Shown: piece by piece, positions 3,680 to 63,500 of the stretch
Layout of the letters: the number at the start of each line of letters is the position of its first letter
Numbering within the stretch: the first letter of the stretch is position 1
DNA from: Desulfobacterales bacterium
GTDB taxonomy: Bacteria > Desulfobacterota > Desulfobacteria > Desulfobacterales > SpSt-501
Assembly: GCA_041736435.1 (NCBI GenBank)
Contig: JBGSTS010000020.1
Span: 119 to 64,118, forward strand
Length of the DNA stretch: 64,000 nt
Reading direction: 5' to 3'
Notes under the pieces: model-generated
What the model saw: only the letters and a program-made list of their open reading frames with translations
Database searches by the model: none
Told to the model about the DNA's origin: nothing
Position numbers and translations under genes: made by a program

Positions 3680-4597
3680 ATGCAGTGCAGCGAAATGGAC
3701 ACGCTCATCAAGAAGGCGGAAATTTTGATTGAGGCGCTGCCGTATATTCAAAAGCTCTATGGCAAGACCGTCGTCGTAAAATACGGCGGCAACGCCATGA
3801 TCAACGAGGAGTTGAAGAACAGCGTGATGGAGGACATCACGCTGTTGAAATTCATCGGCATGAACCCGATCGTCGTCCATGGGGGTGGACCGGAAATCAC
3901 TAAAACGCTGGAGAAATTCGAGATCAAGAGCGAATTCGTCAACGGCCTGCGGGTCACCGACTCGGCCACCATGGAAATCGCGCAGATGGTGCTGGTAGGC
4001 AAGACCAACAAGGAGATTGTCGCCCTGCTGAACAAAAAGGGCGGCAAGGCCATCGGCCTGTGCGGAATCGACGGGCGCCTGATCGAGTGCACCAAGCGCC
4101 GGGCGTTCAGCGACGGCAATGAGGTGGACCTGGGCCACGTGGGAGAAATCATGCAAATCAACTCATCGCTGCTCGCGCTGGTCGCACGCGATGAATACAT
4201 CCCGGTGGTGGCGCCGATCGGCATGGGCAAAAACGGCGAGAGCTACAACATCAACGCCGACGACGTGGCCGGCGAGATCGCCGTTGCGATGAAGGCCGAA
4301 AAGCTGATTTTTCTCACCGATGTCGAGGGCGTGAAGTCAAAGCGCGAGGAGGGCGAAGTCCTCTACGCCCTCACTATCGATGAGGTGCACACGCTGATCG
4401 ACCAGAAGGTCATCGTAGGCGGGATGATCCCGAAAGTGCAGGGTTGCATTGACGCTTTGGAGAAAGGAGTGGGGCGGGCCCACATCATCGACGGCCGGAT
4501 CCCTCACTGCATTCTGCTGGAAATCTTTACTTACAAGGGGATCGGGACGATGATCATGAAGGACAAGGTGCTCTACCACGACCGCGAAAAGCTCTGA
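3680..4597 (+). CDS. argB: Acetylglutamate kinase
   Basis: ...[13 protein letters not shown]...VVHGGGPEI...[12 protein letters not shown]... are classic amino-acid-kinase / ArgB motifs. The true start may be the ATG at 3695. Confidence 0.9.
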
Positions 4598-19612: not shown

Positions 19613-22600
19613 ATGAATCGCCTGAAGCGTATTCTCCTAAGCAAAACAGTCATCATTGGTGTTTCTGCCATTGTCGTTTACACCCTGGCCGGTTTTTTTC
19701 TGGTGCCGTTCCTGGTGCGGCATTATACGCCCAAGATCGTGCAGGCAGAGCTCAAGCGGCAGGCGTCGATCGGCGAGGTGCGTTTCAACCCCTATGCTTT
19801 CACCTTCGAGGCGAACGATTTCCGCCTGGACGAACCGGGCGGGGAGCCGATCGCCGGTTTCAAGCGGCTGTTCATCGATTTCGAATTGAAAAGCCTGTTC
19901 AACTGGGCGTGGACCTTCCGCGAGGTCGTCATCGACACACTTCAAGTGAACGCGGTCATCGCCTCCGATGGCGTTCTCAATTTGGCGCAGCTGGCGCCGG
20001 CCACGGACGCCCCTCCGCCGCCGGAAACGGATGAGCCGCCGCCCAGGCTGATCATCGAGCAGGTCTCGATCGAACAGGGCCGGGTCGATTTCACCGACCG
20101 GCGCCTGTCCGAACCAGCCGCCGTCACCCTCGCCCCGCTTAACCTGAAGATCGACAACCTGACCACGCTCCCTGACCAGAAGGGGCCTAAAACCATCACC
20201 GCGACCAGCGGTGACGGGGAGACCCTGCGCTGGACCGGCTACGTCAGCCTGAACCCGGTGGCGACCCAGGGGACCCTGAAACTTGAGAAGATCCGTACGG
20301 CCACTCTCTGGAAGTTCATGCGGGACGAGGTCAACCTGGAGCCGCCGCTCGGAACCCTGAGTTTGACTGCCGACTACTCCGTGAACATGGGCGGCACCGA
20401 ACTGCAGGTGAACCTCTCCAACCTCGCCGCCGAGCTTAGGGGCGTTGTAGTGAGACTGGCCGGGGCTGAAGCGGCTTTTCTGGAGCTGCCCGACGTGAGA
20501 ATCAGCGAGGTGGGCTTTGATCTCGGCGACCGGCAGGCCGGCATCGGCAAGATAAAGGTTGCCGGTGGACGTGCGCGGCTTGCGGTGGACGAGACGGGCG
20601 CACTCGATCTGGCGCGCATCGTTAAGGCCTCCGGCGCATCGGTGCCCGCCGGCACTGCCTCAAAGCCCTGGAGGGTCAGTCTGGCAGCGCTCGACTTAGA
20701 CCGGTTTGCCCTGGGATACCGGGATGCGAGCCGGGACCCTGGGCTTAGCGCCGGCATCGATGGCGTCGCGTTGCAGCTTAAGGCCGAAGCGGAGGCCGGG
20801 GGGGATTCAACACGGGTAGCGGTGAATGATATCGTCTTAGAACTCTCCGGCCTGCGGGCGGGGCAGACCAACGCAGCGCAACCGGCGGTTCGGATCGAAA
20901 AGGTGGCCCTTGCGGGCGGCGCCTACGATTTGACCCCTAACACCCTATCGGTCGATACGCTCTCCATCGAAGGCGGCGCGATCGACCTGAAGCGGGAGAC
21001 CGACGGGAGCATCAACCTGGTTCTGCTGGCCGCTCCGCCCGAAAAAGGGGCTGTCGCCCGGGAGGCCACGGAGGCGGCCGCCGAAGGCCATCCGTTCCGG
21101 TTTCTGGTCAAAACCGTTGCCGTGTCGGGCCTGGAGACCGTGTTCTCCGATCTATCCGTAAAGCCCGGAGAACCGATCCTTACCCTCGAAGAGATGGCCG
21201 TGGTTCTGAACAACGTGGACGGCACGTCCCCCATGAAGTTCGAGGCCGACCTTAAAATCCGCGAGGGAGGGCAGATCAAAGCCGCCGGCACCGTCGACCC
21301 GTCCCTGCCGTCGGTGGAATCCGAGGTGCAGGTGGCGGACCTGGGCCTGAAGGTGTTTCAGCCCTATGTCGGCCAAGCGGCGGAGGTGATTCTCACCTCG
21401 GGTGCTTTCTCCACCCGCGGAAGCCTGCGCCACGGCGTGAAAGCAGCGGAGGCCGCAACGCTTTACCAGGGCGGTTTCAGGATCGACAATCTGCGGCTCA
21501 TCGAACCCGGCGCCAAAGAGACCCTGGTCGGCTGGAAAACGGTCCAGACCGATCAGTTGAAGCTCCAGCTCGATCCGAACGGGCTCGATATCGGTGATCT
21601 GCGGGTGGTGCAGCCCGTCGGCAAGTTTATCATCGAGAAAAACGGGTCGCTCAACCTGGCCAACGTCATCAAGCCCGGCCCCGAGCCGAAACAACCCGCC
21701 CCGGCGGCCGGCGCAGCGGATCCCTTTCCCTACCGCGTGCGCCGTGTGCTCGTCAGCGACGGGCGCGTCGACTTCGCGGACCTGAGCCTCATCACCCCCT
21801 TCGGCAGCAAAATCCATGAGCTCAAAGGCAACGTGGCCGGGATCTCCTCCGCTAAAAACGCCCGTGCCCAGGTCAAACTCGACGGCCGGGTGGACGAATA
21901 CGGGACGGCCCGGGTCGACGGGGAGTTGAATACCTCGGACCCAAAGGCCTTCACCGACGTCGGCCTGACCTTCCGCAACGTTGAGATGTCAAATCTTACC
22001 CCCTACTCGGGCAAGTTCGCCGGCCGCAAGATCGACTCCGGCAAACTGACGGTCGATCTCAAATACAAGATCGACAAGAGCCGGCTGGCGGGCGAAAACC
22101 AGATCGTGGTGGAGCGGTTGAAGCTGGGGGAAAAAGTGGAAAGCCCCGAAGCAGCGGACCTGCCGCTGGACCTCGCCATCGCCCTGATGGAGGATTCCAA
22201 CGGGGTGATCGATCTCGGGCTGCCGGTCAGCGGCAACCTGGACGCCCCCGAGTTCAGCTTCGGCGCGCTGATTTGGAAAGCCCTCGGCAATCTGCTCACC
22301 AAGATCGTGACGAGCCCCTTCCGGGCCCTGGGGGCGCTGCTGCCGGGCGGGAGCGAAGAGGACTTTAAAAGCGTGGTTTTCGAGCCCGGCCGTTCCGATG
22401 TTCCGCCGCCGGAGAAGGAAAAACTGAACAAGCTGGCGGGCGCGCTTCAGAAGCGGCCCCAGCTGAAGCTCACCGTTCAGGGCCGCTACAATCCGGAAAC
22501 CGACCTGGCGGAGCTGCGCAGCTCCAGCCTGCGGCGTGCCCTGGCCGCGCGCCAAGGGATAAAACTCGAGCCAGGCGAGGACCCCGGACCCGCTGACTAC

Positions 22601-22993
22601 AGCAGCCCGGAGATCGGCAAGGCCTTGGAGGCCATGTTCACCGAGCGCTTCGGCGCCGACGCGCTCAAGGCTATTCAGGCGGAAATGAAGGCGGCGGATG
22701 ACAACGCCAAGAAGATAGCAGCCGCCAAGGCCGCAGAAGCTGCCCCGGAGGGCGAAGCCCGAGACCCCGGCCGGCTGGCCAAAACTCTTTTCACCCGGCT
22801 GGCGGATGCCGAGCCGATCGGGGAACCCGAAATGGCCGGGCTGGCCGCTGCCCGCTCCCAGGCGATTGCCACCGAACTGAGCGGGCCGGGCGGGGTTCCG
22901 GCTGAACGCGTGGTGCTGAACCCTCCGGCCGCCATGGAGAAGGAGAAAGAGGTCCCGCCCACAGCGGTGTTGAACCTCGAGGCCGCCCGATAG
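19613..22993 (+). CDS. DUF748 / AsmA-like large envelope protein
   Basis: 1126 aa. It has an N-terminal TM anchor, then the IGEVRFNPYAFTFEANDFRLDEP pattern typical of DUF748 repeats. Composition suggests a long beta-rich protein. Confidence 0.75.
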   Translation: MNRLKRILLSKTVIIGVSAIVVYTLAGFFLVPFLVRHYTPKIVQAELKRQASIGEVRFNPYAFTFEANDFRLDEPGGEPIAGFKRLFIDFELKSLFNWAWTFREVVIDTLQVNAVIASDGVLNLAQLAPATDAPPPPETDEPPPRLIIEQVSIEQGRVDFTDRRLSEPAAVTLAPLNLKIDNLTTLPDQKGPKTITATSGDGETLRWTGYVSLNPVATQGTLKLEKIRTATLWKFMRDEVNLEPPLGTLSLTADYSVNMGGTELQVNLSNLAAELRGVVVRLAGAEAAFLELPDVRISEVGFDLGDRQAGIGKIKVAGGRARLAVDETGALDLARIVKASGASVPAGTASKPWRVSLAALDLDRFALGYRDASRDPGLSAGIDGVALQLKAEAEAGGDSTRVAVNDIVLELSGLRAGQTNAAQPAVRIEKVALAGGAYDLTPNTLSVDTLSIEGGAIDLKRETDGSINLVLLAAPPEKGAVAREATEAAAEGHPFRFLVKTVAVSGLETVFSDLSVKPGEPILTLEEMAVVLNNVDGTSPMKFEADLKIREGGQIKAAGTVDPSLPSVESEVQVADLGLKVFQPYVGQAAEVILTSGAFSTRGSLRHGVKAAEAATLYQGGFRIDNLRLIEPGAKETLVGWKTVQTDQLKLQLDPNGLDIGDLRVVQPVGKFIIEKNGSLNLANVIKPGPEPKQPAPAAGAADPFPYRVRRVLVSDGRVDFADLSLITPFGSKIHELKGNVAGISSAKNARAQVKLDGRVDEYGTARVDGELNTSDPKAFTDVGLTFRNVEMSNLTPYSGKFAGRKIDSGKLTVDLKYKIDKSRLAGENQIVVERLKLGEKVESPEAADLPLDLAIALMEDSNGVIDLGLPVSGNLDAPEFSFGALIWKALGNLLTKIVTSPFRALGALLPGGSEEDFKSVVFEPGRSDVPPPEKEKLNKLAGALQKRPQLKLTVQGRYNPETDLAELRSSSLRRALAARQGIKLEPGEDPGPADYSSPEIGKALEAMFTERFGADALKAIQAEMKAADDNAKKIAAAKAAEAAPEGEARDPGRLAKTLFTRLADAEPIGEPEMAGLAAARSQAIATELSGPGGVPAERVVLNPPAAMEKEKEVPPTAVLNLEAAR

Positions 22994-28955: not shown

Positions 28956-29366
28956 CTATTGGCGCGCGATACTTTTTTTCATGTAATCATCCACGGCCGA
29001 ATGCAGGGTTTCGGCCGCGAGTTCGGCACAGTGCAGGGTCTCTTTAGGCAGTTCGCCGATAACCTTCTGAATCGCATCGGCGTCGATCTCCAGCAGCGCT
29101 TGAGGCGTTTTGCCCTTGGCAAGATCGGCCGCCGCCATGGCGCAGTTTAAACTGGTCGTGCAGCCGTTTGTCCAGTGGGTGGATTTGACGACCTGGTCAT
29201 CTTCAAATTGAAGGCAGATCTCCATCGTGTCCCCGCACCGGCCGGTGATGCGCGCCTTGCCGTCCGGGGCCTCCAGGATCGGGTTCAAGCGGTAGTGGGC
29301 CCAGAACCATATCCCGACGATGGCCATCAAGACGCCGATACCGCCTATCAGTGCCAACACATCCAT
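28956..29366 (-). CDS. NifU-N/IscU-like Fe-S scaffold domain protein with an N-terminal transmembrane helix
   Basis: The TM helix is MDVLALIGGIGVLMAIVGIWFWAH. The IscU-like cysteines are GRCGD...NGCTTS...LHCAEL. It starts 7 nt after the rnfB stop. Confidence 0.7.
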   Translation of the reverse strand: MDVLALIGGIGVLMAIVGIWFWAHYRLNPILEAPDGKARITGRCGDTMEICLQFEDDQVVKSTHWTNGCTTSLNCAMAAADLAKGKTPQALLEIDADAIQKVIGELPKETLHCAELAAETLHSAVDDYMKKSIARQ

Positions 29367-29372
29367 TTCCTT

Positions 29373-30257
29373 CTATAATGCCAGGGCTTCCTGCTCCGTG
29401 ACCCCATCGGGGCTTTTCAGAAATGGATGCTCCTGGAAAGGGCGAATGACGTGGATCATGAAGCAGGCCTCCAGGCAGGCTTCCCGGCAGGAATCCCCGT
29501 ACGCGAGGCACTGCGTGTGGTCCACCCGGATGACGCCGTCGACGAGGGCGATGGCCCCGGCCGGGCAGGCCCTGACGCAGGACAAACAGTGAAGGCAGCC
29601 TGAGGAGCAGATTCGGTGGGTCTCTTTGCCGGTGTCTTTGCTGCTGCAGCGCACCACGACCCGGCCGCTGCGGGGAATGAGGCTGAACAGTCCCTTGGGG
29701 CAGGCGCCGGCGCACAGGCCGCATCCGGTGCACCTCTCTTCGTCGATGACCGGGAAATGATGGACCATGGTGATAGCGCCGAAGGGGCAGGCGCGCTCAC
29801 AGTCGCCAAAGCCGACGCAGCCGAATTGGCAGTCTGTGGGGCCGCCAAAGGCCAGGTTGGCGGCGGAGCAGCTCCCATAGCCGACATACTCGTATTTTTC
29901 ATAATTGTTTCTCAGGCACCTGGCGCAGTGGACTACCGCCAAGGCCCCTTCGATTGATCCCAGCTGCTTGCCGGTGATCTTGGCCACCGCCTCGGCCACG
30001 GGCGCTTTTCCGGGGAAACACAGTGCGGGGGAAACATCCGGGTCGGTGACCACCGCCTCGGCATAGGCTTCGCACCCGGCGAAGCCGCAGGCGCCTCATT
30101 GCCCGCCGGCCAGGAGCGCCTGAACCGCCTCGACCTTCGGGTTGACCTCGACCGCGAATTTGTGGGCGGCCAACCCCAGCCCGATGCCGAATAAAACGCC
30201 AATACACCCCAGAACAGCCAGCCCCCCCAGGGCCAAATTAATGTAGGAGAGATCCAT
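29373..30257 (-). CDS. rnfB: Rnf complex subunit B, read through an in-frame TGA (codon 54, plus-strand 30096-30098) as candidate selenocysteine
   Basis: From the ATG at 30257 I read MDLSYINLALGGLAVLGCIGVLFGIGLGLAAHKFAVEVNPKVEAVQALLAGGQ-[TGA]-GACGFAGCEAYAEAVVTDPDVSPALCFPG.... The TGA sits at the first Cys of the RnfB CxxCxxxxC...C N-terminal Fe-S domain. It is in the same frame as ORF 29373..30053. Poly-ferredoxin motifs follow downstream. Confidence 0.65.
30066..30086 (-). other. Candidate bacterial SECIS-like hairpin 9 nt 3' of the rnfB UGA
   Basis: On the minus strand this reads GGCUUCG-CCGGGUG-CGAAGCC, a perfect 7-bp stem with a 7-nt loop containing GGU. Confidence 0.45.
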
Positions 30258-30275: not shown

Positions 30276-31271
30276 CTAAAACAGAGACATGCCTGAAAAC
30301 CCCATGAAGGAGAGCGCAAAAAGGCCGGCCACGATAAAGGCGATGGGCAGGCCCCGGTAGGCTTCCGGGATTTTGGCGAACTCGAGCCGCTCGCGGACGG
30401 ACGACATCAAAAACAGCGCGATCAGAAATCCAAGGCCGGCCCCTGACGCCAGCATCAGGCTCTCCGCAAGATTGTATTCGTTCTGAGCCAGGGTCAGCGG
30501 AACCGCAATGATGATGCAGTTGGCAATCACCAGTACCAGGTAGACCCCGAAGGCCTTGAACAGTTTGGGGTTGACCTTGCGCATGATGGTGTCGACTCCC
30601 TGCACGGTCAACGAGACCAAGCCGATGAAGACCACGATTTGCAGGTAGTCCAGCCGATAGGGCTTCAGGACAAACTGGTAGAGAAACCACGAGAGCATGG
30701 AGGCAAACACAATCACGATGGTGAAGGTGATCCCCATGCCGACGGCGGTCGATTTTTTGCGCGAGGTGCCGAAAAACACGCACAGCCCTAAATATTTCGA
30801 AAAAACGAAATTCTGGATGATCATGGCGCCGATCAAAATGGAGAGCAACGTCCCGAAATAGGGCTGTTTCACCGTGAGTCGCGCCGTGCCGAGCGATTTG
30901 CCGTCGGAAAGGATCTCCTTGAGAATGACGGTGTGGCTGTTCTGGCGATTCAGGGCATCCGTCAGCCGCAGGGTCAGGGTTTTTTTGTTCCGGCTGAGCT
31001 CAGCCGCTGCGATCTCCGCTAAAATGTCAGGATCGGTCAGTTCATTGACCGAAAAGTTGGCAATGCGTTGAGCCCAGGCATCATCCACCGGCCCGGCGAA
31101 CGCGATGGTGATTTCATGGCTGTCCCCGAAAACGGCGCTTTGAACGAAAGGATGCTCTGTTTTGCACCCCGTTACTAGCAATAGCCCCATGCAAAGCCAG
31201 ATGGCGCCGAAACGCCGGAGGCGGGCGACGGCAAGGCCGGCCTGCGGGCGCTTATCCCAACCGTTGCGCAT
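30276..31271 (-). CDS. rnfA: Rnf complex subunit A fused to a ~140-aa N-terminal lipoprotein-signal plus Ig-like extension
   Basis: The C-terminal ~190 aa is collinear with RnfA (NFVFSKYLGLCVFFGTSRK...ANCIIIAVPL...RERLEFAKIPEAYRGLPIAFIVAGLFALSFMGFSG). The N-terminus has a lipobox LLLVTG|C. It is followed by ...ITIAFAGPVDDAWAQRIANFSVNE...KTLTLRL...HTVILKEILSDGKSL. Confidence 0.8.
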   Translation of the reverse strand: MRNGWDKRPQAGLAVARLRRFGAIWLCMGLLLVTGCKTEHPFVQSAVFGDSHEITIAFAGPVDDAWAQRIANFSVNELTDPDILAEIAAAELSRNKKTLTLRLTDALNRQNSHTVILKEILSDGKSLGTARLTVKQPYFGTLLSILIGAMIIQNFVFSKYLGLCVFFGTSRKKSTAVGMGITFTIVIVFASMLSWFLYQFVLKPYRLDYLQIVVFIGLVSLTVQGVDTIMRKVNPKLFKAFGVYLVLVIANCIIIAVPLTLAQNEYNLAESLMLASGAGLGFLIALFLMSSVRERLEFAKIPEAYRGLPIAFIVAGLFALSFMGFSGMSLF

Positions 31272-31893
31272 CCACCCCCCTTTTTTTGCGGCGTGCGCTG
31301 ATCGCTTCCGTGTAATTGAAGATGGCCATCATGAACCCGACTGTGAAAAACCCGGCAGCCGGCAGCACAAAAAACAGCATCGGACGAAACCCGACGACCT
31401 TGACGCCGAGAAAGGTCCCCATGCCCAAAATTTCACGAATCGTCCCCAGGGTCGTCATACCGAATAAAAACCCGACCCCCATCCCCATTCCGTCCCAAAA
31501 GGAAGAGGCCAAATCGTGCTTGCACGCAAACACCTCCAGGCGCATGGTGATGATGGCAAACGCCACGATCAGCCTGACGAAGATGCCCATGGCCTTGTAG
31601 GCCTCCGGAACATAGGCCGCCAGGATGAGATCGATCACCGTGACCCAGGTGGCGATCGTCAGGGTGTAGGTCGGGATGCGGATGCGCGGGTGGATGTGAT
31701 TCTTGATCAGCGAGATGGTGCAGCTCGAGAACACCTGGACAAAAAGCACCGCCACCCCCAGCAGCAGCCCGTTCATCACGCTGGTGGTGAGCCCCACGGC
31801 CGGGCACATGCTGAGGGCCAGGCGGAATATGGGGTTTTCGTTCAAGACGCCGTTCAAGAACAGCTGTTTATGTGTCTTGGGTGTTGTCAGCAC
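31252..31893 (-). CDS. rnfE: Rnf complex subunit E
   Basis: 213 aa with ...NPIFRLALSMCPAVGLTTSVMNG.... It is a six-helix RnfE/NqrD-type protein. Confidence 0.9.
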   Translation of the reverse strand: MLTTPKTHKQLFLNGVLNENPIFRLALSMCPAVGLTTSVMNGLLLGVAVLFVQVFSSCTISLIKNHIHPRIRIPTYTLTIATWVTVIDLILAAYVPEAYKAMGIFVRLIVAFAIITMRLEVFACKHDLASSFWDGMGMGVGFLFGMTTLGTIREILGMGTFLGVKVVGFRPMLFFVLPAAGFFTVGFMMAIFNYTEAISARRKKRGVDAQRLG

Positions 31894-31956
31894 GTATCAA
31901 TTTCCTCTTGTGCCCCGAAGGCCCCGCATGTCATCGCAATCCCCGGCGTTGATCGG

Positions 31957-32865
31957 TTAAAACGCAACTTGGATATTGTTTTCGCGGGCCGCCTGCTCCA
32001 GGAGCGTGAGGCGGTGGACTGAATTGCGCACGATGCGTTTAACGCCGTTGGCCACCGCGCTGCTGGAAATCGTCGCTCCGCTGATGGCATGAATCTCCTC
32101 GTTTTGATACTTCGTTCTCAGGGCGTTTGCGTCCCCTTCGGACAAGGCCCCCTTCCCCCCGATTCCGGATTCCAGATAGTGCTTGTGTTCCTCGGACAAC
32201 GGGGTCCGGGTGACGGACAGGGTCTTGACGGTGTCGATCGCCTTGTTCCTGAACTGATTTTTAAAATACGCTTTTTCGATTTCGCCGCCCAGCCCGGGGT
32301 CCTCCTCATGCGCGGTGATTTCCACCCCGCGAACACTGAAATCCGGGTTCAGCGCCACCATGAGATGGATCGCATTCTTGTATCCGGGGAATTTTCCCGG
32401 GATGATGTAGGCCAGGCGCTTGCCGTCCAGCTCCGCAACGGTTACGGCCTCGGCATCGTGAAAGGCGGTGCGCGGGCCCAACAGCGCGGCAATGGCCCTG
32501 CCGCGATCCTTTTCGTCGGACACCCTCTCCGGTGAAATCTTCAGTTGATGGCGGTCTACCAACCGACCGTTCAGGTCGATGATCCAGAATTCATGTTCGG
32601 TTTTGCCCGCGGCCGGGACCAGGTAACCGGACCGGGGTCCCGCCTCATCCTCGACGATGTAGCGGTGAAGGGTGTGCAGTCTCAGATTCGGCGGCATCGG
32701 GCGGGACCGGCTGTATCCCAGCAAGCCGGCCATGGTCTGCTGAACATTCAGAAGTTCATTGCGCTTTTTGGCCTTGGCCGTTGCCATGAACACCCCGCCC
32801 ATCACCCCCCCGGCGATCAGGCAGGAAACGGTCAGGGCCACCGCGATTTTGAAAATCTCCTTCAT
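31957..32865 (-). CDS. rnfG: Rnf complex subunit G (FMN-binding), unusually long
   Basis: The start is MKEIFKIAVAL at 32865, an ATGA overlap with the rnfD stop. It has a TM anchor and the C-terminal FMN attachment motif HAISGATISS. At 302 aa it is longer than the ~200 aa I consider typical. Confidence 0.85.
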   Translation of the reverse strand: MKEIFKIAVALTVSCLIAGGVMGGVFMATAKAKKRNELLNVQQTMAGLLGYSRSRPMPPNLRLHTLHRYIVEDEAGPRSGYLVPAAGKTEHEFWIIDLNGRLVDRHQLKISPERVSDEKDRGRAIAALLGPRTAFHDAEAVTVAELDGKRLAYIIPGKFPGYKNAIHLMVALNPDFSVRGVEITAHEEDPGLGGEIEKAYFKNQFRNKAIDTVKTLSVTRTPLSEEHKHYLESGIGGKGALSEGDANALRTKYQNEEIHAISGATISSSAVANGVKRIVRNSVHRLTLLEQAARENNIQVAF

Positions 32866-33872
32866 GCAGCGCCCTCGGAGAAGCGCTTCGGCCGGAACCA
32901 TTGATCCAGGGCCGGAGTCAAAGGGTTCATCAGCAGGATGGCATAACAGATCCCCTCCGGATACCCCCCCTTCAGTCGGATGAGGACCGTCAGAGCCCCG
33001 ATTCCAAAACCAAAAAGGACCTGGCCGGTTCTCTGGCTGGGAGAGGTGACATAGTCGGTGGCCATGAAGAAGGCGCCCAGGATCACCCCGCCGGAGAGCA
33101 CGGCCAGAAGCGGGTTGCCCGAGAACAGCTGTTCGCCGCCGAAGACCCAGGTTAAGAAACCGGTGGAGGCGATGACCGACACCGGGATATGCCAGGTGAT
33201 ATAATGCTTATAAACTAAAAAGATCCCCCCGAGTAAAAGCAGCAGGGCTGATGTCTCCCCGATGCAGCCGGGTCGCAGCCCGATAAAAAAATCGGTGTAA
33301 ACGGTCGACAGCGACCCGAATTTTTCGATAAAGGCCTTCATCCCGTAATGTTTCAGCACATGGAGCGGGGTGGCGGCCGAGACGGCGTCGATCCCGGACC
33401 CCAGGTATTTGAACAGGGAGGCGCCCCGCAGGGGTTCCAACCAGGCGGTGGTCATGACGACCGGATAGGTGGCCACCAGAAAGGCCCGGCCGATCAGTGC
33501 CGGGTTGAAAATGTTGAAGCCCAGCCCGCCCATGAGCACTTTGGTCACAAAGATGGCCATGACGGCTCCCGTGACGGGGGTCCAGTAGGGGACGCCCGGC
33601 GGGATGATGTAGGCCAAAAGCAGACCGGTGATCACCGCGCTGCCGTCATTGATCTTGACCGGCCGCTGTAACAGTTTGTTGGAGATCGCCTCGGTGGCGA
33701 CACAGGCGCCGACGCTGATCAGCGTGATGATCAAGGTTTGAAGGCCGAAGACGAAGACCGATACCATCAACGGCGGGGTCAGGCATGCCACCACGGTCCA
33801 CATGATGGTCGCCACCGTCGTGTTCTGCTTGATGTGCGGTGAAACAGATACGATCAGGTCTGCTTGGGCCAT
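32862..33872 (-). CDS. rnfD: Rnf complex subunit D
   Basis: 336-aa polytopic NqrB/RnfD-type protein with ...GAFFMATDYVTSP.... Confidence 0.9.
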   Translation of the reverse strand: MAQADLIVSVSPHIKQNTTVATIMWTVVACLTPPLMVSVFVFGLQTLIITLISVGACVATEAISNKLLQRPVKINDGSAVITGLLLAYIIPPGVPYWTPVTGAVMAIFVTKVLMGGLGFNIFNPALIGRAFLVATYPVVMTTAWLEPLRGASLFKYLGSGIDAVSAATPLHVLKHYGMKAFIEKFGSLSTVYTDFFIGLRPGCIGETSALLLLLGGIFLVYKHYITWHIPVSVIASTGFLTWVFGGEQLFSGNPLLAVLSGGVILGAFFMATDYVTSPSQRTGQVLFGFGIGALTVLIRLKGGYPEGICYAILLMNPLTPALDQWFRPKRFSEGAA

Positions 33873-35320
33873 TTCCGCTTTTCTTTTTTCTTTTCGGCTT
33901 CACGAATCCGTATCCGGGCGAGCCGGATAAACTGGACCAGCGGGCGCTTGGACGGACAGACATAGGCGCAGCTGCCGCACTCGAAGCAATCGTCCACCAG
34001 CCCGAACTGGGCGGTTTCGGCCCCGCGGCCCGCCTCGACATAGATGCCGATGTTGTTGGGCTCGAGCCCCATGGGACAGGCCTGCAGGCAAAATCCGCAG
34101 CGGATGCAGGGGCCATAGTCCTGTGCGTCGATCTCGTCGCGGGTCAAAAACAGGACCCCGGCCGTGGTTTTGGTGATGGGTATTTCCAGGCTGGAGACGG
34201 CAAAGCCCATCATCGGCCCCCCCGCTACCACCTTGGCAAGGCCTGGGGTCGTGCCGCCCAGGTATGAAACGATGTCGGACAGATGGGTGCCGATCGGAAC
34301 GAGCAAGTTGGCCGGCCGGGCGATCCCCTTGCCGGAAACGGTGATGACGCGTTCGTAAAAAGGTTTGCGCCGGACGACGGCATCATAAATGGTTTTGCTA
34401 GTGTAGACGTTCTGAACCATGACGCCGATGCTCGAGGAACGTTTTCCGGAGGGCCGCACACGGCCGGTGACGCTCTGGATGATCTGGTCGGCCGAGCCCT
34501 GAGGGTATTTGACGCGCAGCGGGGCGACTTTGATGGAAAACGGCTCTTCGGCCCGGTTGCACCCGATGGCCTCGTTCAATGCGGTGATGGCATCCGGCTT
34601 GTTGTTTTCCACCCCGATGACGCAAGCGCGGATACCCAGAATGGTCAGGATGATCTTGGCTCCTTCAACCACCTCCTGGGGTTGCTCCACCATGATGCGA
34701 TGATCGCAGGTCAGATACGGCTCGCACTCCGCCCCGTTCAGAATCAAGGTCTCCAGCGGGACTTCCGGGGAGACGTTCAGCTTGGCGTGGGCTGGAAAGC
34801 CGGCGCCGCCCAGGCCCACGATGCCGGCGTCCCTGATCCGGTCGAGCAGCTCCTGCCTGGAAAATTGCCGCCACTCCTCCGCGGCGAGGGTGGGGGACAC
34901 GGCCTCCGGGTCGCGGGAGATGACGATGGCCGTCGCCTTGCCGGTCATCGGGTGAAGTGCGTCGACCACCCCCTCCACGGTGCCGCCGATGCTGGCGTGC
35001 AGGGCGGCGCCCAGCGAGTCTTCGATCGACCCGATCCGGTCGCCGGCTCTGACCCGGGGTTTACGGGTGACCAGCTGCCGATAGATGCGCCCCGGGTGCC
35101 GGCCGAAAAGGAGGGCGTCGTCCGGCGGGGTCTCCGGTGGTTTCTGCACCGCCACGTGACAGGCCGCGCCGACATGTTGTTTCAAAAACAGGCACACCCG
35201 GGGCGGCGGCGGCAACGTCTCCACCGAAAGGCCGGCGGTCGACTCCTTCAGCGCAGCGGGATGTACTCCGCCCAGCGGAAAGGTCGCCGGCGTGGCAACC
35301 GCCCTGCCGTCAGTGGCCAT
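33854..35320 (-). CDS. rnfC: Rnf complex subunit C
   Basis: It has IVGLGGAGFPAH (NADH/FMN site), LNGAECEPYLTCD and two ferredoxin motifs (CIRCGFCLQACP / CFECGSCAYVCP). Confidence 0.9.
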   Translation of the reverse strand: MATDGRAVATPATFPLGGVHPAALKESTAGLSVETLPPPPRVCLFLKQHVGAACHVAVQKPPETPPDDALLFGRHPGRIYRQLVTRKPRVRAGDRIGSIEDSLGAALHASIGGTVEGVVDALHPMTGKATAIVISRDPEAVSPTLAAEEWRQFSRQELLDRIRDAGIVGLGGAGFPAHAKLNVSPEVPLETLILNGAECEPYLTCDHRIMVEQPQEVVEGAKIILTILGIRACVIGVENNKPDAITALNEAIGCNRAEEPFSIKVAPLRVKYPQGSADQIIQSVTGRVRPSGKRSSSIGVMVQNVYTSKTIYDAVVRRKPFYERVITVSGKGIARPANLLVPIGTHLSDIVSYLGGTTPGLAKVVAGGPMMGFAVSSLEIPITKTTAGVLFLTRDEIDAQDYGPCIRCGFCLQACPMGLEPNNIGIYVEAGRGAETAQFGLVDDCFECGSCAYVCPSKRPLVQFIRLARIRIREAEKKKEKRKWPKQT

Positions 35321-35831
35321 ATCGCGTCCGGCTCCTTCCGAGCAGGCTCAGCCCGTACTCTTCTCGGCTTTTCTGGGACAGCGCGGCCGGCTCGCCGAAC
35401 TGCAAAGCATCCGTGGGACACACGGCCACGCAGGCCGGTTCGAGGCCCTCGTCTATCCGGTCCATGCACATGTTGCACTTCATGGCCTTGCCGGCGGTGG
35501 CATCCCACTGGGGGATGTGCCAGGGGCACGCCAGGATGCAGGACTTGCACCCCACGCACAATTCCCGCAGGATGTAGACCAGCCCGTCCTTGTCTCGTTT
35601 GCGAATGGCGTTGACCGGGCATGCGTTCAGGCACCAGGCGTCCTCACAGTGGAAACAGGGGATGAACAGGGAAGACATCATGGGTTTCCCATTCATGAGC
35701 TTCGGCCCCAACACCACGATTTTTCCCAGGGTGGCCCCGGCCGGGACTTGGTTTTTGACCTTGCAGGCGATTTCGCAGGCGTGGCAGGCGACGCATTTGG
35801 CCGGATCCGTATAAATCAGGTAATCTCCCAT
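35310..35831 (-). CDS. Four-cluster 4Fe-4S ferredoxin subunit (DmsB/PsrB-type)
   Basis: CVACHACEIACK, CFHCEDAWCLNACP, CVGCKSCILACP and CNMCMDRIDEGLEPACVAVCP. Its 3' end overlaps the rnfC start by 11 nt. Confidence 0.85.
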   Translation of the reverse strand: MGDYLIYTDPAKCVACHACEIACKVKNQVPAGATLGKIVVLGPKLMNGKPMMSSLFIPCFHCEDAWCLNACPVNAIRKRDKDGLVYILRELCVGCKSCILACPWHIPQWDATAGKAMKCNMCMDRIDEGLEPACVAVCPTDALQFGEPAALSQKSREEYGLSLLGRSRTRYGH

Positions 35832-35852: not shown

Positions 35853-37943
35853 TCAAACCCGTTTCACCGTGACCAAGGTGTGGTCAAACGCCGGACTTCC
35901 GCCCACCGGGTCCACCGTCGCCTCCTGGAGCATCGCATCGGCCACCCCGCGCTGATAACTCCTTCTGGATTCAGGCTCCTGGTGTCCGAACCCGTGAAGC
36001 ATGAAAACGGCCTCCGGCTGAATCATGTTCGTCACGAAGGCTTTCAGCCGCCCCGATCCTGCCGCCGAGGCGATTTCGACTAAATCCATGTTTTTGATCC
36101 CCAGCGCGGCGGCCCGCTCGGAATTGATCCAGAGGACATTCTCCGGCACGAGTTCGTTCAGGTAGGTGTTGTTCTGGGTCATCACGTTGGTGTGCGCAAC
36201 ACAGCGGCCGACGATTAGCCTGAATCGGTCTTGGGGCGTCTCCAGGGGCTCATACGGCGGAAAGGATTGGAAGCTATGCTTTTCCAATAGGCTGGACGCA
36301 AACTCGATTTTGCCGGAAGGGGTTTTGAACTGGATCCCGTTTTCGCGATCCCACCAGATGGGCTTGTCGCTGAGGGAGACAAACCCCTTGGCTTCGAAAT
36401 CCCCGGCCTGGAGTCCTACGTCCGCCAGTTGATACTTCCAAATGTCTTCGATGGTCTCGTAGGGGAAATAGTCTCCTGCGCCCAGGCGCTCGGCCAGTTG
36501 CTTCAGGATCCACCACATGGGTTTGGTGTCGAATCGGGGCTTGATGCAGGCGATCCTGCGGTTAATGGCCGGTTTCAGGCCGGCCGCCATCTGCAAGGGG
36601 TCCGAGCGTTCCAGGAAAAACGATTCCGGCAGAATTACATCCGCCCGCGAGGTGGTTCCGCCGAAATTGATGTCGCAGGAGACGATCAGCTCCAGCTTTT
36701 CAAGCGCACGCAGGGTCTGTTGGTAATCGCACAGCGAAAAGAGCGGGTCGTAACGGAAAGCAAAAAGAACCTTGAGCGGGTAGGGGTCTTCATTCAGCAC
36801 CGCCGATGGGAACATGGCGCCCACGCCGTGGGCCGGGTCGACGATGGGGAACTTCTCCTGCCCGCAGCCGTCAAACTTGCGGCCGTCCGCCATTTTGGGG
36901 AACTGCTGGTCTGAAAATTTGCGGATGCCGGCCGCCAGCCCCGCATCCTTGGGGCCTTTTTTGATGAACACCCCGCCCTTGGCCTCGATGCTGCCCATCA
37001 AGGCGTTCAGAATCATGATGGAGCGCCTAAAATAGATTTCATTGGGGTGGCCCGACCCCCGGTACCCATAGTGAAAAACAACGGCGGGTTTGGCCTCGTT
37101 GATGTCCTTGGCCAGCTGAACGATCTCCTCAGCGGGGATTCCCGTTTCCGCCTCGGCCCACTCCGGGGTGAACTCCTTGACAAAGTTGCAGAGCTTGTCG
37201 AAACCCTCCACCCAGCGGTCCACGTATTTAACATCATAGAAGTGGCGTTCCCTGATGATTACGTGCATCAGGGCGTAATTCAGCGCCAAGTCCGTCCCGG
37301 GCCGGATCATCATATATCGGCTCGATTTGGCGGCCGTGATGCTCACCCGCGGGTCGATGGTGGTGAGCTTCGTCCCTTGCGCCATGGCGTCGAGCAGCGC
37401 ATTGACGGCCTTGACTTCCATGCTCTCGAAAATGTTCCGCCCATAGAGGACGACGTGCCGCGCATTGCCCCAGTCGGCGCTGATCTGAGCGTCGGTGTAC
37501 CCGGTCAGCGAGCGGCAGGCGGTGTTGATGGATCCTTTGCAGACGGTGTCGTGTGAAAAATAATTCGGCGACCCGATCGCTTTCATGAACGTCTTGGACA
37601 AGTCCGTCGCCAGGTTCACGCGTTCGCAGTACACCGCGCTCTTGCTGCCGTATTTTTCAAAAATCTCCCGGCAGCGGTCCGCCGTATAATCCAGGGCAGC
37701 ATCCCAGCTGGCGGTTTTCCACTGTCCGGACCCGCGGGCCCCGGACCGGATCAGGGGCCCATGGACCCGCTGCGGATCATTGACCCAGCCGACAGCGGCC
37801 GCGCCCTTCGGACACACGCCGCCTTTCATGGCCGGAACATGCGGGTTGCCGCCGATGCTGACAACCTGGTCGTCCTCGACCACCACGGCTATGGGGCATC
37901 TGACGGAACACATGAAACACAACGTGTAAACCGTTTTTTTCAT
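35853..37943 (-). CDS. Molybdopterin (Mo/W-bisPGD) oxidoreductase catalytic subunit of the PsrA/PhsA/SoeA-like group, with no signal peptide
   Basis: The N-terminal LCFMCSVRCP...CPKG is the MopB [4Fe-4S] motif at residues 9-16, so there is no room for a Tat RRxFLK leader. The candidate metal-ligand Cys is in FSHDTVCKGS. 696 aa. Confidence 0.85.
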   Translation of the reverse strand: MKKTVYTLCFMCSVRCPIAVVVEDDQVVSIGGNPHVPAMKGGVCPKGAAAVGWVNDPQRVHGPLIRSGARGSGQWKTASWDAALDYTADRCREIFEKYGSKSAVYCERVNLATDLSKTFMKAIGSPNYFSHDTVCKGSINTACRSLTGYTDAQISADWGNARHVVLYGRNIFESMEVKAVNALLDAMAQGTKLTTIDPRVSITAAKSSRYMMIRPGTDLALNYALMHVIIRERHFYDVKYVDRWVEGFDKLCNFVKEFTPEWAEAETGIPAEEIVQLAKDINEAKPAVVFHYGYRGSGHPNEIYFRRSIMILNALMGSIEAKGGVFIKKGPKDAGLAAGIRKFSDQQFPKMADGRKFDGCGQEKFPIVDPAHGVGAMFPSAVLNEDPYPLKVLFAFRYDPLFSLCDYQQTLRALEKLELIVSCDINFGGTTSRADVILPESFFLERSDPLQMAAGLKPAINRRIACIKPRFDTKPMWWILKQLAERLGAGDYFPYETIEDIWKYQLADVGLQAGDFEAKGFVSLSDKPIWWDRENGIQFKTPSGKIEFASSLLEKHSFQSFPPYEPLETPQDRFRLIVGRCVAHTNVMTQNNTYLNELVPENVLWINSERAAALGIKNMDLVEIASAAGSGRLKAFVTNMIQPEAVFMLHGFGHQEPESRRSYQRGVADAMLQEATVDPVGGSPAFDHTLVTVKRV

Positions 37944-43898: not shown

Positions 43899-45794
43899 AT
43901 GATGAAAGCGGACCTGCATGTGCATTCGCGGCACTCGACCCGGCCCTCCCAGTGGTTCCTGCAAAAGATCGGCTGCCCGGAAAGCTTTACCGACCCGCTG
44001 CAGCTCTACCACATTGCCCGGCGGCGGGGCATGACGCTGGTGACCATCACGGATCACAACAAGATCGACGGTGCCCTCGAGATCGCTCATCTTCCCGGGG
44101 CCTTCGTGAGCGAAGAGGTGACCGCCTATTTTCCCGAAGACGGCTGCAAGGTCCATGTGCTGGTCTACCGCATCACCGAGGCGCAGCACGCGGAGATCCA
44201 GAAAATCCGCACCGACGTTTACGACCTCCTCCGCTACCTAAAGGATGCGGCCATACCCTGTGCCCTGGCCCACCCGATGTATGCGGTCAACGATCGGTTG
44301 ACGGTGGCCCACATCGAAAAGCTCTTGCTGTTGTTCCGCAATTTCGAATTGAACGGCGACAGCAACCCGGAGTCCAACCGCAGCCTGGAGACGGTGCTGT
44401 CAGCCTTGACCCCGGCTGACATTGAGCGTCTGGCGAACACCCATGGCATCTCCCCGCTCTGGCCGGAACCCTGGCGCAAAAATCTGATCGGCGGCTCCGA
44501 CGACCACAGCTCGCTCAACATCTCCCGCAACTTCACCCAGGTGGAGGGCGCCGGGAGCGTCGATGCGTTCCTGGCCGGGATAGAGTCCGGGCAGGCACGG
44601 GTGGTCCAGCGGCCCTCCTCGCCGCAGGCCATGGCTCACAACCTCTACAGCATCGCCTACCAGTTTTATCGTCAGAAACTCGGGTTGAGCCGGGATGCAC
44701 CGCAGCATTTCCTGCTGCGCTTCATCGACCGGTGCCTGCGGCTAACGGACGGGTCTGAATCGGGGTTTCTGGCACGGCTGCATTTTCTGTGGCAATACCG
44801 CCGGATCCGCAAAATACAGGGCAGCATTCCCGGCCCCCTGGTGGAGCTCCTGCAGCAGGAGACGTCGCGGTTGCTGGAAGAGGATCCGGCGCTTTTCGAT
44901 CTGCCCGAGGCGGGCGACTGGATGTCCAAGCGGATGGAGGAGCGTTGGTTCGACTTCATGGACAGGATGTCCAACCGGATCCTGCTCGGATGCGCCAACC
45001 ATCTCCTGGGCCATGTGTCGGGGGCCAACCTGTTCAACATTTTTCAAACCATCGGCTCGGCCGGAGGGTTCTGCACGCTGCTGACCCCCTATGCGATGGC
45101 GTTTTCCCACTACAACCGCCAACGGCAGTTCAGCCAAGCCGTGTTGGAACGGTTTGGGCATGCCGTGCCTGACGATCCGACGCCATCGCAGGCGTGCGCT
45201 GTGTTTGCGGACACTCAAGCCGACGGGCAGGAATCGATCCGAACGCATGCTCGCAGCCATCCGGGGCGGCGGTGCGCGCTGTTGACCTGCGATACCGGGG
45301 TTGAATCCGAGGCCGTCAAGCGTTTTGAGCCCATCGGGGTCTACGAATTCGACGAGCAGCCGCACTACCGGCTGGTCTACCCGCCGGTCCTGGAGATGCT
45401 CGACTACTGCTACACCGGCCGATTCAGCCGTGTGCACCTGGCCACCACCGGCCCGGCCGGTTTGGCCGGCCTGTTCATCGGTCGCTTTCTGAAGCTGCCG
45501 CTGGAGGCCGACTTCAGCGACCTGCTGCCGCGCATGGCGCGGGAGATCACCCGGGATGGGTTCATCGAGGAGCTCTGCTGGCGCTACACGGTGTGGTTCT
45601 ACAGCCAGATGAATACGGTTTACGTCTCCTCCGGAGCCCAGCTGGCCGAGCTGGCCCAGCACGGTATTCCCCGCGCAAAACTCAGGGTGGCACCGCAGCC
45701 GACGGATTCGGCATCGCTCTGGGGCGATGCCCGCACAGCCCCCGCCGGTGCTGCCTCCCGGCGGCTGCGGCGGCAGGCCGGCGCCCGCATCTGA
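43899..45794 (+). CDS. PHP-domain phosphoesterase fused to a GT-B (GT4-like) glycosyltransferase N-terminal half. The C-terminal nucleotide-sugar half appears to be missing.
   Basis: MKADLHVHSRHS...VTITDHNKIDG is a PHP metal-binding motif. The C-terminal ~200 aa resembles a GT4 N-domain (...RVHLATTGPAGLAGL...VYVSSGAQLAELAQHGIPRAKLRV). The ORF then ends in low-complexity sequence, where RGVD...EX7E would be expected. Confidence 0.65.
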   Translation: MMKADLHVHSRHSTRPSQWFLQKIGCPESFTDPLQLYHIARRRGMTLVTITDHNKIDGALEIAHLPGAFVSEEVTAYFPEDGCKVHVLVYRITEAQHAEIQKIRTDVYDLLRYLKDAAIPCALAHPMYAVNDRLTVAHIEKLLLLFRNFELNGDSNPESNRSLETVLSALTPADIERLANTHGISPLWPEPWRKNLIGGSDDHSSLNISRNFTQVEGAGSVDAFLAGIESGQARVVQRPSSPQAMAHNLYSIAYQFYRQKLGLSRDAPQHFLLRFIDRCLRLTDGSESGFLARLHFLWQYRRIRKIQGSIPGPLVELLQQETSRLLEEDPALFDLPEAGDWMSKRMEERWFDFMDRMSNRILLGCANHLLGHVSGANLFNIFQTIGSAGGFCTLLTPYAMAFSHYNRQRQFSQAVLERFGHAVPDDPTPSQACAVFADTQADGQESIRTHARSHPGRRCALLTCDTGVESEAVKRFEPIGVYEFDEQPHYRLVYPPVLEMLDYCYTGRFSRVHLATTGPAGLAGLFIGRFLKLPLEADFSDLLPRMAREITRDGFIEELCWRYTVWFYSQMNTVYVSSGAQLAELAQHGIPRAKLRVAPQPTDSASLWGDARTAPAGAASRRLRRQAGARI

Positions 45795-60454: not shown

Positions 60455-60557
60455 CATTCCCGGGGATTCTGAACAACGGCGTACATCTTGGCAGCGAGGG
60501 CATGAAGCAAGCTCCTTATCCACACTGTCCGACGCTGCGGTTCGCAGCGGAGCGTTG

Positions 60558-63500
60558 ATGATTCAATCGATTCACACCCAGGTAGAGGGCCGGGCCCGTT
60601 TCAAGATCGACGGGCTGTTCGGTTCGGAGATGCTCAAGCGGGTCCTTGAACAGAGGCTCTCCCGCGAAGGGGAGATTTACTCGGTATCGGCCAGCATCCT
60701 CACCGGCAATATCCTGGTCAATTTCAACTCCAACAACGACCACCACACCATCCGGTTTCTGATCGAAGAGATCCTGGTGGAAATCCACCAAAAGGGATTG
60801 CCGCCGGCTGCAGCCTTCGAGCTGGAGCCTGAATCGGCGGCGAAACGCTCGCCGGCCCGGGCCTTGCCGGTGGAGACCCTCAAACGCTTCTTGTCCCCGG
60901 AGTCGGAGGGTGCGGCGCCACTCGACAAGCCCTGGCATACGCTGGAGGCCCCCTTGGCCGCCTCCATCCTGCGCACAGACGCCCGCGCGGGGCTTTACGC
61001 GAGTGAAGCCGCCGAGCGGCTGAAGGCTTACGGTCCCAACCTCCTGCCCAAGCCCGAGCCGCGCTCAAAAGCCGAAATATTTTTCCAGCAGTTGAACTCG
61101 CTGCCGGTGCTGCTGCTGGGGGCTGCGGCCGGCATCTCGGTTCTGACCGGGGGCATCCTCGATGCGGCCGTCATCGGCGGCGTCGTGCTGGCCAATGCCG
61201 TCATCGGCTACATCACGGAGAGCGGCGCCGAAAAAACCATGGAGTCCCTCAAGGAGCTGGTCCACCCGACGGCGGAAGTCATCCGGGAGGAACGCTCCGT
61301 CCACCTGGCCGTGGAGGAGGTGACGGTCGGGGACCTCCTGGTGTTGAAACCCGGGACCTACGTAGCCGCCGACAGCCGGATCGTGTCTGCCGATCGGCTG
61401 AGCATCGACGAGTCCATGCTGACCGGCGAGAGCATGCCGGTGCACAAGGAAGCCAAGAGGCTCAAGCACGAGAACACGCCGCTGGCCGATCGCGCCAACA
61501 TGGTTTACATGGGAACGCTCGTGACCGGCGGGCAGGGCCTCGCGCTGGTGGTGGCCGTCGGCCGCTTCACCCAGGTCGGCATGCTCCAGGCGATGCTGGC
61601 CGACACTCAAACCCCGCCGACGCCGATCGAGCTTCAGCTGGCACAGATGGGGAACCAGCTGGTGGCGGCCTGCGGGGCGATTTGCGGGGTGGTGTTCGGG
61701 ATCGGTTTTTTACGCAGCTACGGCCTGGTCCAGATGCTGCAGATGTCGATTTCGCTGGCGGCTTCGGCCGTGCCCGAGGGGCTTCCGGCTGCGGCGACGA
61801 TCAACTTCGCCATGGGCATTACCGACCTGCGCCGGCATGGGGTGCTCGTTCGCAAGCTGCAGGCGGTTGAGACCCTGGGGGCCGTCCAGACCATCTGCCT
61901 GGACAAGACCGGGACCATCACCGAGAATCGCATGACGTTGACCGAAATCCTGGCCGGCCGCACGCGCTATGCCGTGGTGAAGAATATGCTGGAGCCCTTG
62001 CCGGGGGGGCGCGATGTCCTCGCCGTCGGCGAAATCCGGCACCTGCTGATCGTTTGTGCCCTCTGCAACGAAATCAAGATCACGGTGGACAAGGAAAGCG
62101 GCGAAATCGACCTCTTCGGCTCCTCCACGGAGACGGCCCTGATGCGGGTGGCGGCTGCGACCGGAATCGATATCGTCGGCCTGCAGGAGGATTTTCGCTT
62201 CGTGGGCCTGCGCCTGCGGTCGGAAAACCGGCTCTACATGAGCAGCCTGCACTCATGCCCCTCGGAGGACTGCCGCTACATCTTCACCAAGGGCAGCCCG
62301 CACGACGTCCTCGATCTGTGCGACCGCGAAATGGTAAAGGGTCGGGTGAAGGCCCTCACCGAGGAGCGCCGGCAGGAGATCCACATCGAAAACGACCGCA
62401 TGGCCGGCCGTGGCCTGCGGGTATTGGGCTTCGCCTTCAATCGCTTCACAATGAAGGCGGAGATCGACGAGTCCGCCCCGATGGTCTGGCTGGGGCTGGC
62501 CGGTATGGCCGACCCCATCCGGCCGGGGGTGGCCGAGTTGATCGCGGTCTTCCAGCGGGCGGGCATCGAAACCGTGATGATCACGGGCGACCAGAGCACT
62601 ACGGCCTATGCCGTGGCCCGCGAACTGAACCTCGGCGGCGAAAAGCCCCTCAAGATCCTGGACTCGGCCGAGCTCACCTCGCTTGACTCCGAGCGGCTCC
62701 AGGCGCTCGCCAAGAACGTGCACGTCTACTCCCGGGTCAGCCCGGCGCACAAGCTGCGGATCGTTCAGGCCCTGCAGGATGCCGGCCGCGTCGTGGCCAT
62801 GACCGGAGACGGGATCAACGACGGACCCGCCTTGAAAGCGGCCAATATCGGCATCGCCATGGGCGAGTCCGGCACCGATGTGGCCCGCGAGGTGGCGGAC
62901 ATCATCATCGCGGGCGACAAACTGGAGCAGTTGGCTCAGGCCCTGGGCGGCGGGCGTACGACCTACGGGAACATCCGCAAATCGGTGCACTTTTTCCTCT
63001 CCACCAACCTGACCGAGATCATGGTGATGTTCGCCTGCATGGCCCTCGGCCTGGGGTTTCCGCTGACCGTCATGCAGCTGCTCTGGATCAACATCATCTC
63101 GGACATCTTCCCGGGGCTGGCCCTCTCGCGCGAAGAGCCGGAGCCGGGCCTCATGACCCAGCCGCCGCGGCCCGCCGGCGCTCCGCTCTTTTCGGGCCGG
63201 GACTTCCGCGTCATGGCCGTGGAGTCCGGCATCATCAGCACCGGCGCCCTATCCGCCTATCTCTACGGGATCGGCCGCTATGGCCGCGGGGCCCGGGCCG
63301 GCTCGCTGGCCTTCCAGGCGCTTGTCTTCGGCCAGCTGCTGCATGCCTACAGCTGCCGCACGGAGAAGAGGAGCATCTTCGATGCCAAGCGCCCGCCGAG
63401 GAACCCCTATCTCGACCTGGCGATCGGAGGCTCCCTTGCGCTGCAGGTGCTCACCCTGGTACTCCCCGGACTGCGGGGGGTTCTCGGGGCCGCCGCGCCG

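Follow-up and report, generated by a model that had tools for sequence, protein, structure and literature searches.

An rnfB gene with an in-frame TGA at codon 54, very probably decoded as selenocysteine (Sec), lies on the minus strand of a 64,000-nucleotide stretch of contig JBGSTS010000020.1 from a Desulfobacterales bacterium (the whole stretch is hereafter called the window). RnfB is the Fe-S subunit of the ion-translocating ferredoxin:NAD+ oxidoreductase (Rnf). Comparison with related sequences points to one gene with UGA54 read as Sec, a reading to which we assign a probability of about 0.87. A candidate selenocysteine-containing RnfB had been proposed from the letters and open reading frames (ORFs) of the window alone, in what we call the sequence-only reading. 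That proposal gained support from the cysteine column of homologues, the conservation of the TGA, the lack of a conserved restart, and a conserved hairpin.

The gene (29373..30257, minus strand) was annotated as a single read-through coding sequence of 294 amino acids with Sec (U) at residue 54, based on its continuous frame and its profile matches. Its ATG at 30257 starts MDLSYINLALGGLAVLGCIGVLFGIGLGLAAHKFAVEVNPKVEAVQALLAGGQ, and the 53-codon frame that follows (MDLSY...AAHKFAVEVNPKVEAVQALLAGGQ) is closed by the TGA at 30098-30096. Past this codon the frame is unbroken, running through GACGFAGCEAYAEAVVTDPDVSPALCFPG... and GACGFAGCEAYAEAVVTDPDVSPALCFPGK... to a TAG that ends at 29373. In the ORF list the gene is split into 30096-30257 (53 aa) and 29373-30053 (226 aa, GTG start); the two had been joined across the TGA into one minus-strand frame by the sequence-only reading, and this frame was confirmed at every coordinate. 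With U replaced by C, the joined protein scored 342.3 bits against the RnfB equivalog NCBIfam NF005503 (cut-off, 252; residues 8-276) and 79.5 bits against TIGR01944 (cut-off, 68.7). Pfam PF04060 (“putative Fe-S cluster”) matched residues 50-72, across the TGA. Alignment to the RnfB chains of PDB entries 7ZC6 and 9ERI gave E values of 3.5e-58 and 8e-52, respectively. An N-terminal transmembrane anchor was placed at about residues 1-29 (30171..30257, minus) from the alignment and from the transmembrane helix of C. tetanomorphum RnfB, which comprises residues 1-29 (Vitt et al. 2022, PMC9588780).

The UGA (30096..30098, minus) takes the first position of the motif U54-x2-C57-x4-C62-x17-C80. The other three residues, assigned by alignment on the same strand, are Cys57 (30087..30089), Cys62 (30072..30074; its UGC codon also forms part of the loop and 3' arm of the hairpin described below), and the invariant Cys80 of LCFPG (30018..30020). 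The motif matches, residue by residue, the Cys-type RnfB proteins of C. tetanomorphum (7ZC6_B), Acetobacterium woodii (9ERI_B), and Azotobacter vinelandii (8AHX_B), which have the same transmembrane anchor, a C-x2-C-x4-C-x17-C FdI motif, and ferredoxin-like 4Fe-4S domains, and which all have Cys at the TGA column. Among the 120 best database homologues, the column is Cys (...GGQ[C]GACGF...) in 99/99 sequences that bear the motif; 19 of the remaining 21 are N-terminally truncated entries (approximately 208-228 aa) that start after it, and none of the 120 contains a U or X residue. The UGA is thus aligned with Cys in homologues, as in known Sec/Cys pairs, and the assignment of the TGA to the first Cys of an N-terminal CxxCxxxxC...C Fe-S domain, made from the sequence, is borne out by an invariant column. 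Compared with Cys-type RnfB, the window protein differs in having its first motif residue coded by UGA, not UGY, and in a C-terminal tail (...FMIHVIRPF...EQEALAL) common only to relatives in the Desulfobacteria.

In C. tetanomorphum, the four-Cys motif defines the small FdI domain (residues 40-90), situated between the transmembrane helix and the globular FdII+III part (Vitt et al. 2022, PMC9588780). From PF04060, the structure alignment, and that definition, the corresponding small, mobile N-terminal Fe-S domain of the window protein spans about residues 40-90 (29988..30140, minus). The sequence-only reading had stressed that RnfB is the ferredoxin-facing subunit, and this emphasis needs correction: by the published domain definition, residue 54 sits in the mobile, membrane-proximal FdI domain, not in the ferredoxin-docking part.

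Conservation of the TGA was assessed in two samples. In a scan of one genome per species, limited to the best 80 RnfB loci, TGA was found at the codon 54 position in 20 genomes, namely Desulfobacteraceae and metagenome-assembled genomes (MAGs) of Desulfobacterales, a Desulfatiglandales MAG, and the complete Syntrophus buswellii DM-2 genome (NZ_CP175563). The other 60 loci, among them all Desulfobulbales, Clostridia, and Methanosarcinales, have TGC or TGT. Two of the truncated database entries, from Desulfonema magnum (L001) and a Joint Genome Institute (JGI) metagenome contig (L002), were traced to their DNA, where a 53-aa ORF is followed by an in-frame TGA and then by GACGFAGCEAYA.... The window, these two, and the 20 species genomes make up the 23 TGA-type loci compared below; each has exactly one in-frame stop, always TGA and never TAA or TAG. 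As an independent sample, metagenomes were scanned with a pattern that fixed only the peptide around the TGA and left all third codon positions free. At least 120 contigs carried the TGA form. They yielded 102 unique sequences, in which the stop was TGA in 102/102; 101 of them run on into LCxPG, and the median downstream frame is 234 codons. The in-frame TGA is beyond chance, since 22 other diverged loci and at least 120 metagenome contigs share it at this position. It is retained in near and distant relatives, both flanks are under protein-level selection, and no genuine split gene was found among relatives.

In a neighbor-joining tree, TGA forms occupy most of the Desulfobacteria/Syntrophia part. 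Cys forms (L003, L004, L008, L054, and L009/L013/L030) are interspersed among them, and an all-Cys Desulfobulbales clade is nested inside. This distribution argues for several Sec/Cys switches; the tree carries no support values and does not give their direction.

The TGA is followed by a hairpin that resembles the upper stem-loop of a bacterial selenocysteine insertion sequence (SECIS). The perfect 7-bp stem GGCUUCG/CGAAGCC, noted from the sequence at 30066-30086, agreed with the fold and was extended to 8 bp, GGCUUCGC/GCGAAGCC, around the loop CGGGU. It begins about 10 nucleotides (nt) after the UGA (9 nt between) and consists of a 5' arm (30079-30086), the loop (30074-30078), and a 3' arm (30066-30073; 30066..30086 overall, minus). 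Counted from the U of UGA, the loop reads C21-G22-G23-G24-U25, so that a stem-loop lies just downstream of the UGA with G in its apical loop at about positions 22 to 24. The minimum free energy (MFE) structure also predicts an extended lower stem for the window sequence (30054..30093, minus), which is uncertain; relatives fold differently outside the upper stem.

Whole-segment MFE did not differ between Sec and Cys forms (-17.9 versus -18.3 kcal/mol; p=0.57). Since all of these GC-rich segments fold, this measure was replaced by tests of the local hairpin and of synonymous sites. Local MFE (+10..+34) was -9.41 +/- 2.4 kcal/mol in the 23 Sec forms versus -5.50 +/- 2.1 kcal/mol in the 60 Cys forms (p=3e-8), and -9.59 kcal/mol in the metagenome set. 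The stem codon Gly+4 is GGC in 22/23 TGA loci and in 99/102 metagenome TGA forms, against 50/102 and 42/93 for two nearby upstream Gly codons of those metagenome sequences (p ~1e-16). Likewise, the stem codon Glu+9 is GAA in 22/23 and 97/102 TGA forms, against 67/100 for the next Glu, at +13 (p=2e-7); the window genome prefers GAG over GAA (417:251), yet has GAA in the stem. The loop codon Gly+7 is GGG, GGA, or GGU, with GGC in only 1/102 metagenome TGA forms versus 26/60 Cys forms. This avoidance of GGC suggests a sequence-specific requirement in the loop.

Several observations weigh against a Sec-decoding gene with a SECIS. Within the window, the hairpin is unexceptional: dinucleotide shuffling of the 61-nt segment gave a nonsignificant z of -0.54, 9% of synonymous re-codings with the codon usage of this genome fold equally well or better, and a stem of 5 bp already follows from the peptide F-A-G-C-E. 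Because neither the shuffling nor the re-coding test is significant, the claim of a SECIS cannot be made from the window, and the significance of the hairpin comes only from the comparative codon data. The sequences behind those data are related, and the hairpin and codon p-values, which carry no phylogeny correction, are therefore inflated. The codon bias is also present, though less strong, in Cys forms that encode an identical peptide (GGC in 6/10, GAA in 7/10). A good hairpin is retained in some of the Cys forms that lie among TGA forms (L054, L009, L013, and L030), that of L054 having 7 contiguous pairs and -10.1 kcal/mol. Such hairpins may be fossil SECIS elements of a recent Sec-to-Cys conversion, or the peptide may pre-form the hairpin. 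No double compensatory changes in the stem were found among the compared sequences, because both arms are fixed by amino acids. No Rfam SECIS family matched: the whole window gave no Rfam hit at gathering score, and 30000-30140 gave only noise at E<=10, a result that weighs little. Of the earlier suggestion that the hairpin is plausible as a SECIS, what stands is its placement, its conservation in TGA forms, and a synonymous constraint that is weaker or absent in Cys forms; what does not stand is any exceptional stability in the window sequence itself.

The window likewise provides no sign of the decoding machinery. None of selA, selB, and selD is among its 37 annotated or inspected genes, a tRNA scan of the 64 kb returned no tRNA gene and hence no tRNA-Sec, and an in-frame TGA scan requiring a coding signature on both sides revealed no second selenoprotein gene. 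In 60 related contigs, too, neither tRNA-Sec nor selA, selB, or selD adjoins rnf. Relatives are therefore the only basis for inferring that this genome has the Sec trait. The genome papers of D. multivorans and D. autotrophicum report selA, selB, and selD, and selenoprotein counts are 16 for Syntrophus aciditrophicus, 16 for D. multivorans, and 32 for D. autotrophicum (Peng et al. 2016).

Gene callers and public databases show rnfB in split form, as would be expected of a 53-aa membrane anchor peptide and a separate, GTG-initiated soluble polyferredoxin of 226 aa that lacks the FdI cluster. A GTG is indeed present at codon +15 in the window, 19 of the 120 best protein clusters are truncated (approximately 208-228 aa), and the D. 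magnum entry carries the name “NADH dehydrogenase protein.” We nevertheless regard a split or truncated gene as highly improbable. The 14 codons between the TGA and the GTG (+1..+14; GACGFAGCEAYAEA) lie outside both called ORFs, and over all pairs of the 23 loci they hold 1536 synonymous versus 324 nonsynonymous differences, compared with 2255:1092 in the 20 codons upstream of the TGA and 2948:1680 in codons +15..+40. By this ratio, they are translated and form the most constrained part, exceeding the called parts in protein-level conservation. Only 13/23 loci have their earliest in-frame ATG, GTG, or TTG past the TGA at codon +15; in the others it drifts to +16, +17, +25, +33, +36, +37, or +45, with no consistent Shine-Dalgarno motif before it among the 23. 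The stop, moreover, is TGA in 23/23 and 102/102 sequences. The 226-aa product would lose the membrane tether and keep only Cys80 of the four motif residues, in agreement with the point raised by the sequence-only reading that three of four ligands would be lost. Thus, neither a conserved start with a ribosome-binding site nor frame decay with varied stops was observed; the UGA and both flanking frames are conserved between species, with coding selection continuing past the UGA. A pseudogene or a sequencing or assembly error can be considered in the same light, because TGA is one base from TGC or TGT and this exact genome is represented by a single assembly. Here the probability is negligible: the same TGA recurs in more than 140 independent assemblies (isolates, MAGs, and metagenomes), which excludes a sequencing error, and it is a single in-frame stop with strong purifying selection on both sides.

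What the conserved TGA, frame, and hairpin do not identify is the inserted amino acid. UGA54 might be read through without selenium, by near-cognate insertion of Cys or Trp, or termination there might be regulated so as to adjust the amount of RnfB, and the hairpin would then induce a pause or promote read-through instead of binding SelB. The lack of Sec machinery in the 64-kb window and of an Rfam SECIS match would fit such a gene. UGA is not reassigned genome-wide, since TGA is the ordinary stop of 18/37 window genes. We consider selenium-free read-through unlikely: Cys and nothing else occupies the column in other sequences, a hallmark of Sec/Cys pairs; the position of the hairpin and its G22-G23 loop fit the SelB-binding geometry of Escherichia coli fdhF; the loop Gly codon avoids GGC (1/102); and few known bacteria are as rich in selenoproteins as the host lineages.

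The comparison with fdhF, the gene for formate dehydrogenase H, can be made position by position. It likewise has an in-frame UGA and an intragenic hairpin with G22-G23 in the apical loop. Folded in the same way as rnfB, it gave an apical loop G22-G23-U24-C25, in which both Gs coincide with G22-G23 of rnfB; in fdhF, SelB makes its contacts at G23 and U24. The loop Gly codon is GGU, as in fdhF, in two relatives (L025 and L027). The rnfB stem differs in starting at position 13 (15 in fdhF) and in being perfect, without the bulged U, and its loop is CGGGU versus GGUC. In formate dehydrogenase H, Sec coordinates the active-site Mo; in RnfB it would occupy an Fe-S ligand position, with SelB binding predicted here. 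In two relatives (L018 and L028) and 23/102 metagenome sequences, Tyr (UAC) replaces Phe and leaves an A-A mismatch at stem position 17. This position adjoins that of the single unpaired U (18) in the E. coli fdhF upper stem, which may be coincidence.

With UGA54 decoded as Sec, the proposed course of events is as follows. A ribosome arriving at UGA54 would meet, about 10 nt downstream, the hairpin formed by the codons for G-F-A-G-C-E-A, which would present a G22-G23-N-U loop. SelB carrying Sec-tRNA(Sec) would bind this loop and insert Sec in place of termination, and the product would be an RnfB of normal length, with Sec for the first Cys of the FdI motif U-x2-C-x4-C-x17-C. The actual incorporation of selenium, and any effect of Sec on redox potential or kinetics, we infer. 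The peptide sequence comes close to dictating the hairpin, so one TGY-to-TGA mutation could turn a Cys form into a Sec form, and conversion in one step would account for the recurrent Sec/Cys switches in the tree.

In the C. tetanomorphum enzyme, a putative [4Fe-4S] cluster of the FdI domain, RnfB-1, is proposed to swing between RnfB-2 and the Fe center of RnfA/RnfE (PMC9588780). Given Sec insertion, residue 54 is rather probably a selenolate ligand of this cluster; as such, Sec54 would help pass electrons between the fixed RnfB clusters and the RnfA/RnfE Fe center. Against a role as cluster ligand, the FdI cluster was unresolved in the 2022 map of C. tetanomorphum and was deduced there from four clustered Cys residues and the domain of a related corrinoid Fe-S protein (PMC9588780). 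Sec at a canonical [4Fe-4S] ligand position is unusual. HdrA, the best-known example of Sec associated with Fe-S, was considered as a precedent for a Sec-ligated [4Fe-4S] cluster and rejected, because its Sec197 was read as part of a Cys-Sec redox pair in a 2026 M. maripaludis structure. Sec in place of a conserved Cys is, more generally, shared with the catalogued selenoprotein families, in which the same exchange, with Cys orthologues interspersed, is seen in redox and Fe-S proteins of anaerobes, above all those formerly classed as Deltaproteobacteria (Peng et al. 2016, Table S3).

Directly upstream of rnfB, on the same strand (30276..35320), are rnfC (33854-35320), rnfD (32862-33872), rnfG (31957-32901), rnfE (31252-31893), and rnfA (30276-31271), assigned by NCBIfam TIGR01945, TIGR01946, TIGR01947, NF009070, and TIGR01943; the order is the same in L002. 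The gene is therefore the last of an rnfCDGEAB operon, the place that Cys-type rnfB holds in characterized Rnf systems. The rnfA ORF encodes 331 aa, but the RnfA profile begins only at residue 142. The N-terminal extension (30850-31271 region) opens with a signal peptide and a lipobox-like LLLVTGC, and RnfA of L002 is likewise long (332 aa). A lipoprotein-like periplasmic domain appears, from these sequences, to be fused to RnfA in the clade of the window and L002. RnfG is another N-terminally extended subunit (314 aa, versus approximately 190 aa for the profiles; 294 aa in L002), and the match to its FMN-binding part starts no earlier than about residue 150.

A 4Fe-4S dicluster subunit (35310-35831, minus) lies directly upstream of rnfC and overlaps its start, and further upstream is a PhsA/Fdh-like molybdopterin oxidoreductase of 696 aa (35853-37943, minus). 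The two may be cotranscribed with the rnf operon. The PhsA profile match starts at profile position 41, which corresponds to residue 2 of the oxidoreductase, and this protein may be without an export signal. On the other side, 7 nt after rnfB, is a NifU/IscU-like Fe-S scaffold gene (28956-29366, minus), and rnfB of L002 has the same neighbor (3701-4129). Elsewhere in the window, on the plus strand, are a P-type (E1-E2) cation ATPase ORF of 1017 aa (60555-63608), whose first Pfam domain begins at residue 127; a 631-aa ORF (43899-45794) with a strong coding signature that lacks Pfam matches at E<=1e-8; and a protein of 1126 aa (19613-22993) that consists of a single DUF748 match (905 bits).

The 71 selenoprotein families of Peng et al. 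(2016, Table S3) do not include RnfB; the Rnf-related family there is the unrelated RnfC subunit. The genome papers of D. autotrophicum and D. multivorans list selenoproteins as well, again without RnfB. A full-text search of the literature, with subscription journals and most supplements outside its coverage, yielded no report of an RnfB that contains Sec. In public protein sets, as represented by the 120 best database matches, genes of the TGA form are present only as truncated entries. Sec-RnfB thus appears to be a widespread, uncatalogued selenoprotein family whose mechanism is itself standard for bacteria (UGA with an intragenic SECIS, in a Sec/Cys pair). We give even odds to a fuller picture, in which the mobile FdI domain holds a native selenolate-ligated [4Fe-4S] cluster, selenium tunes the potential or electron transfer rate at the step feeding the ion-coupled part of Rnf, and Cys/Sec flips by one point mutation have given repeated gains and losses across Desulfobacterota.

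Because of the in-frame TGA, gene calling systematically divides RnfB of many Desulfobacteria, Syntrophia, and Desulfatiglandales into an orphan of 53 aa and a “truncated” protein of approximately 226 aa. Rnf may therefore look defective in metabolic reconstructions, and selenoproteome counts come out one family short. The FdI cluster is the mobile and least well resolved element of Rnf, and a native Se ligand there, if true, would be a built-in probe for spectroscopy (77Se) or anomalous scattering, with the interspersed Cys orthologues as natural controls for the role of Sec at an Fe-S ligand position. These anaerobes are energy-limited, and Rnf is their main ferredoxin:NAD+ ion pump; a selenium dependence of RnfB, if true, would link the supply of trace Se to energy conservation in marine sulfate reducers and syntrophs.

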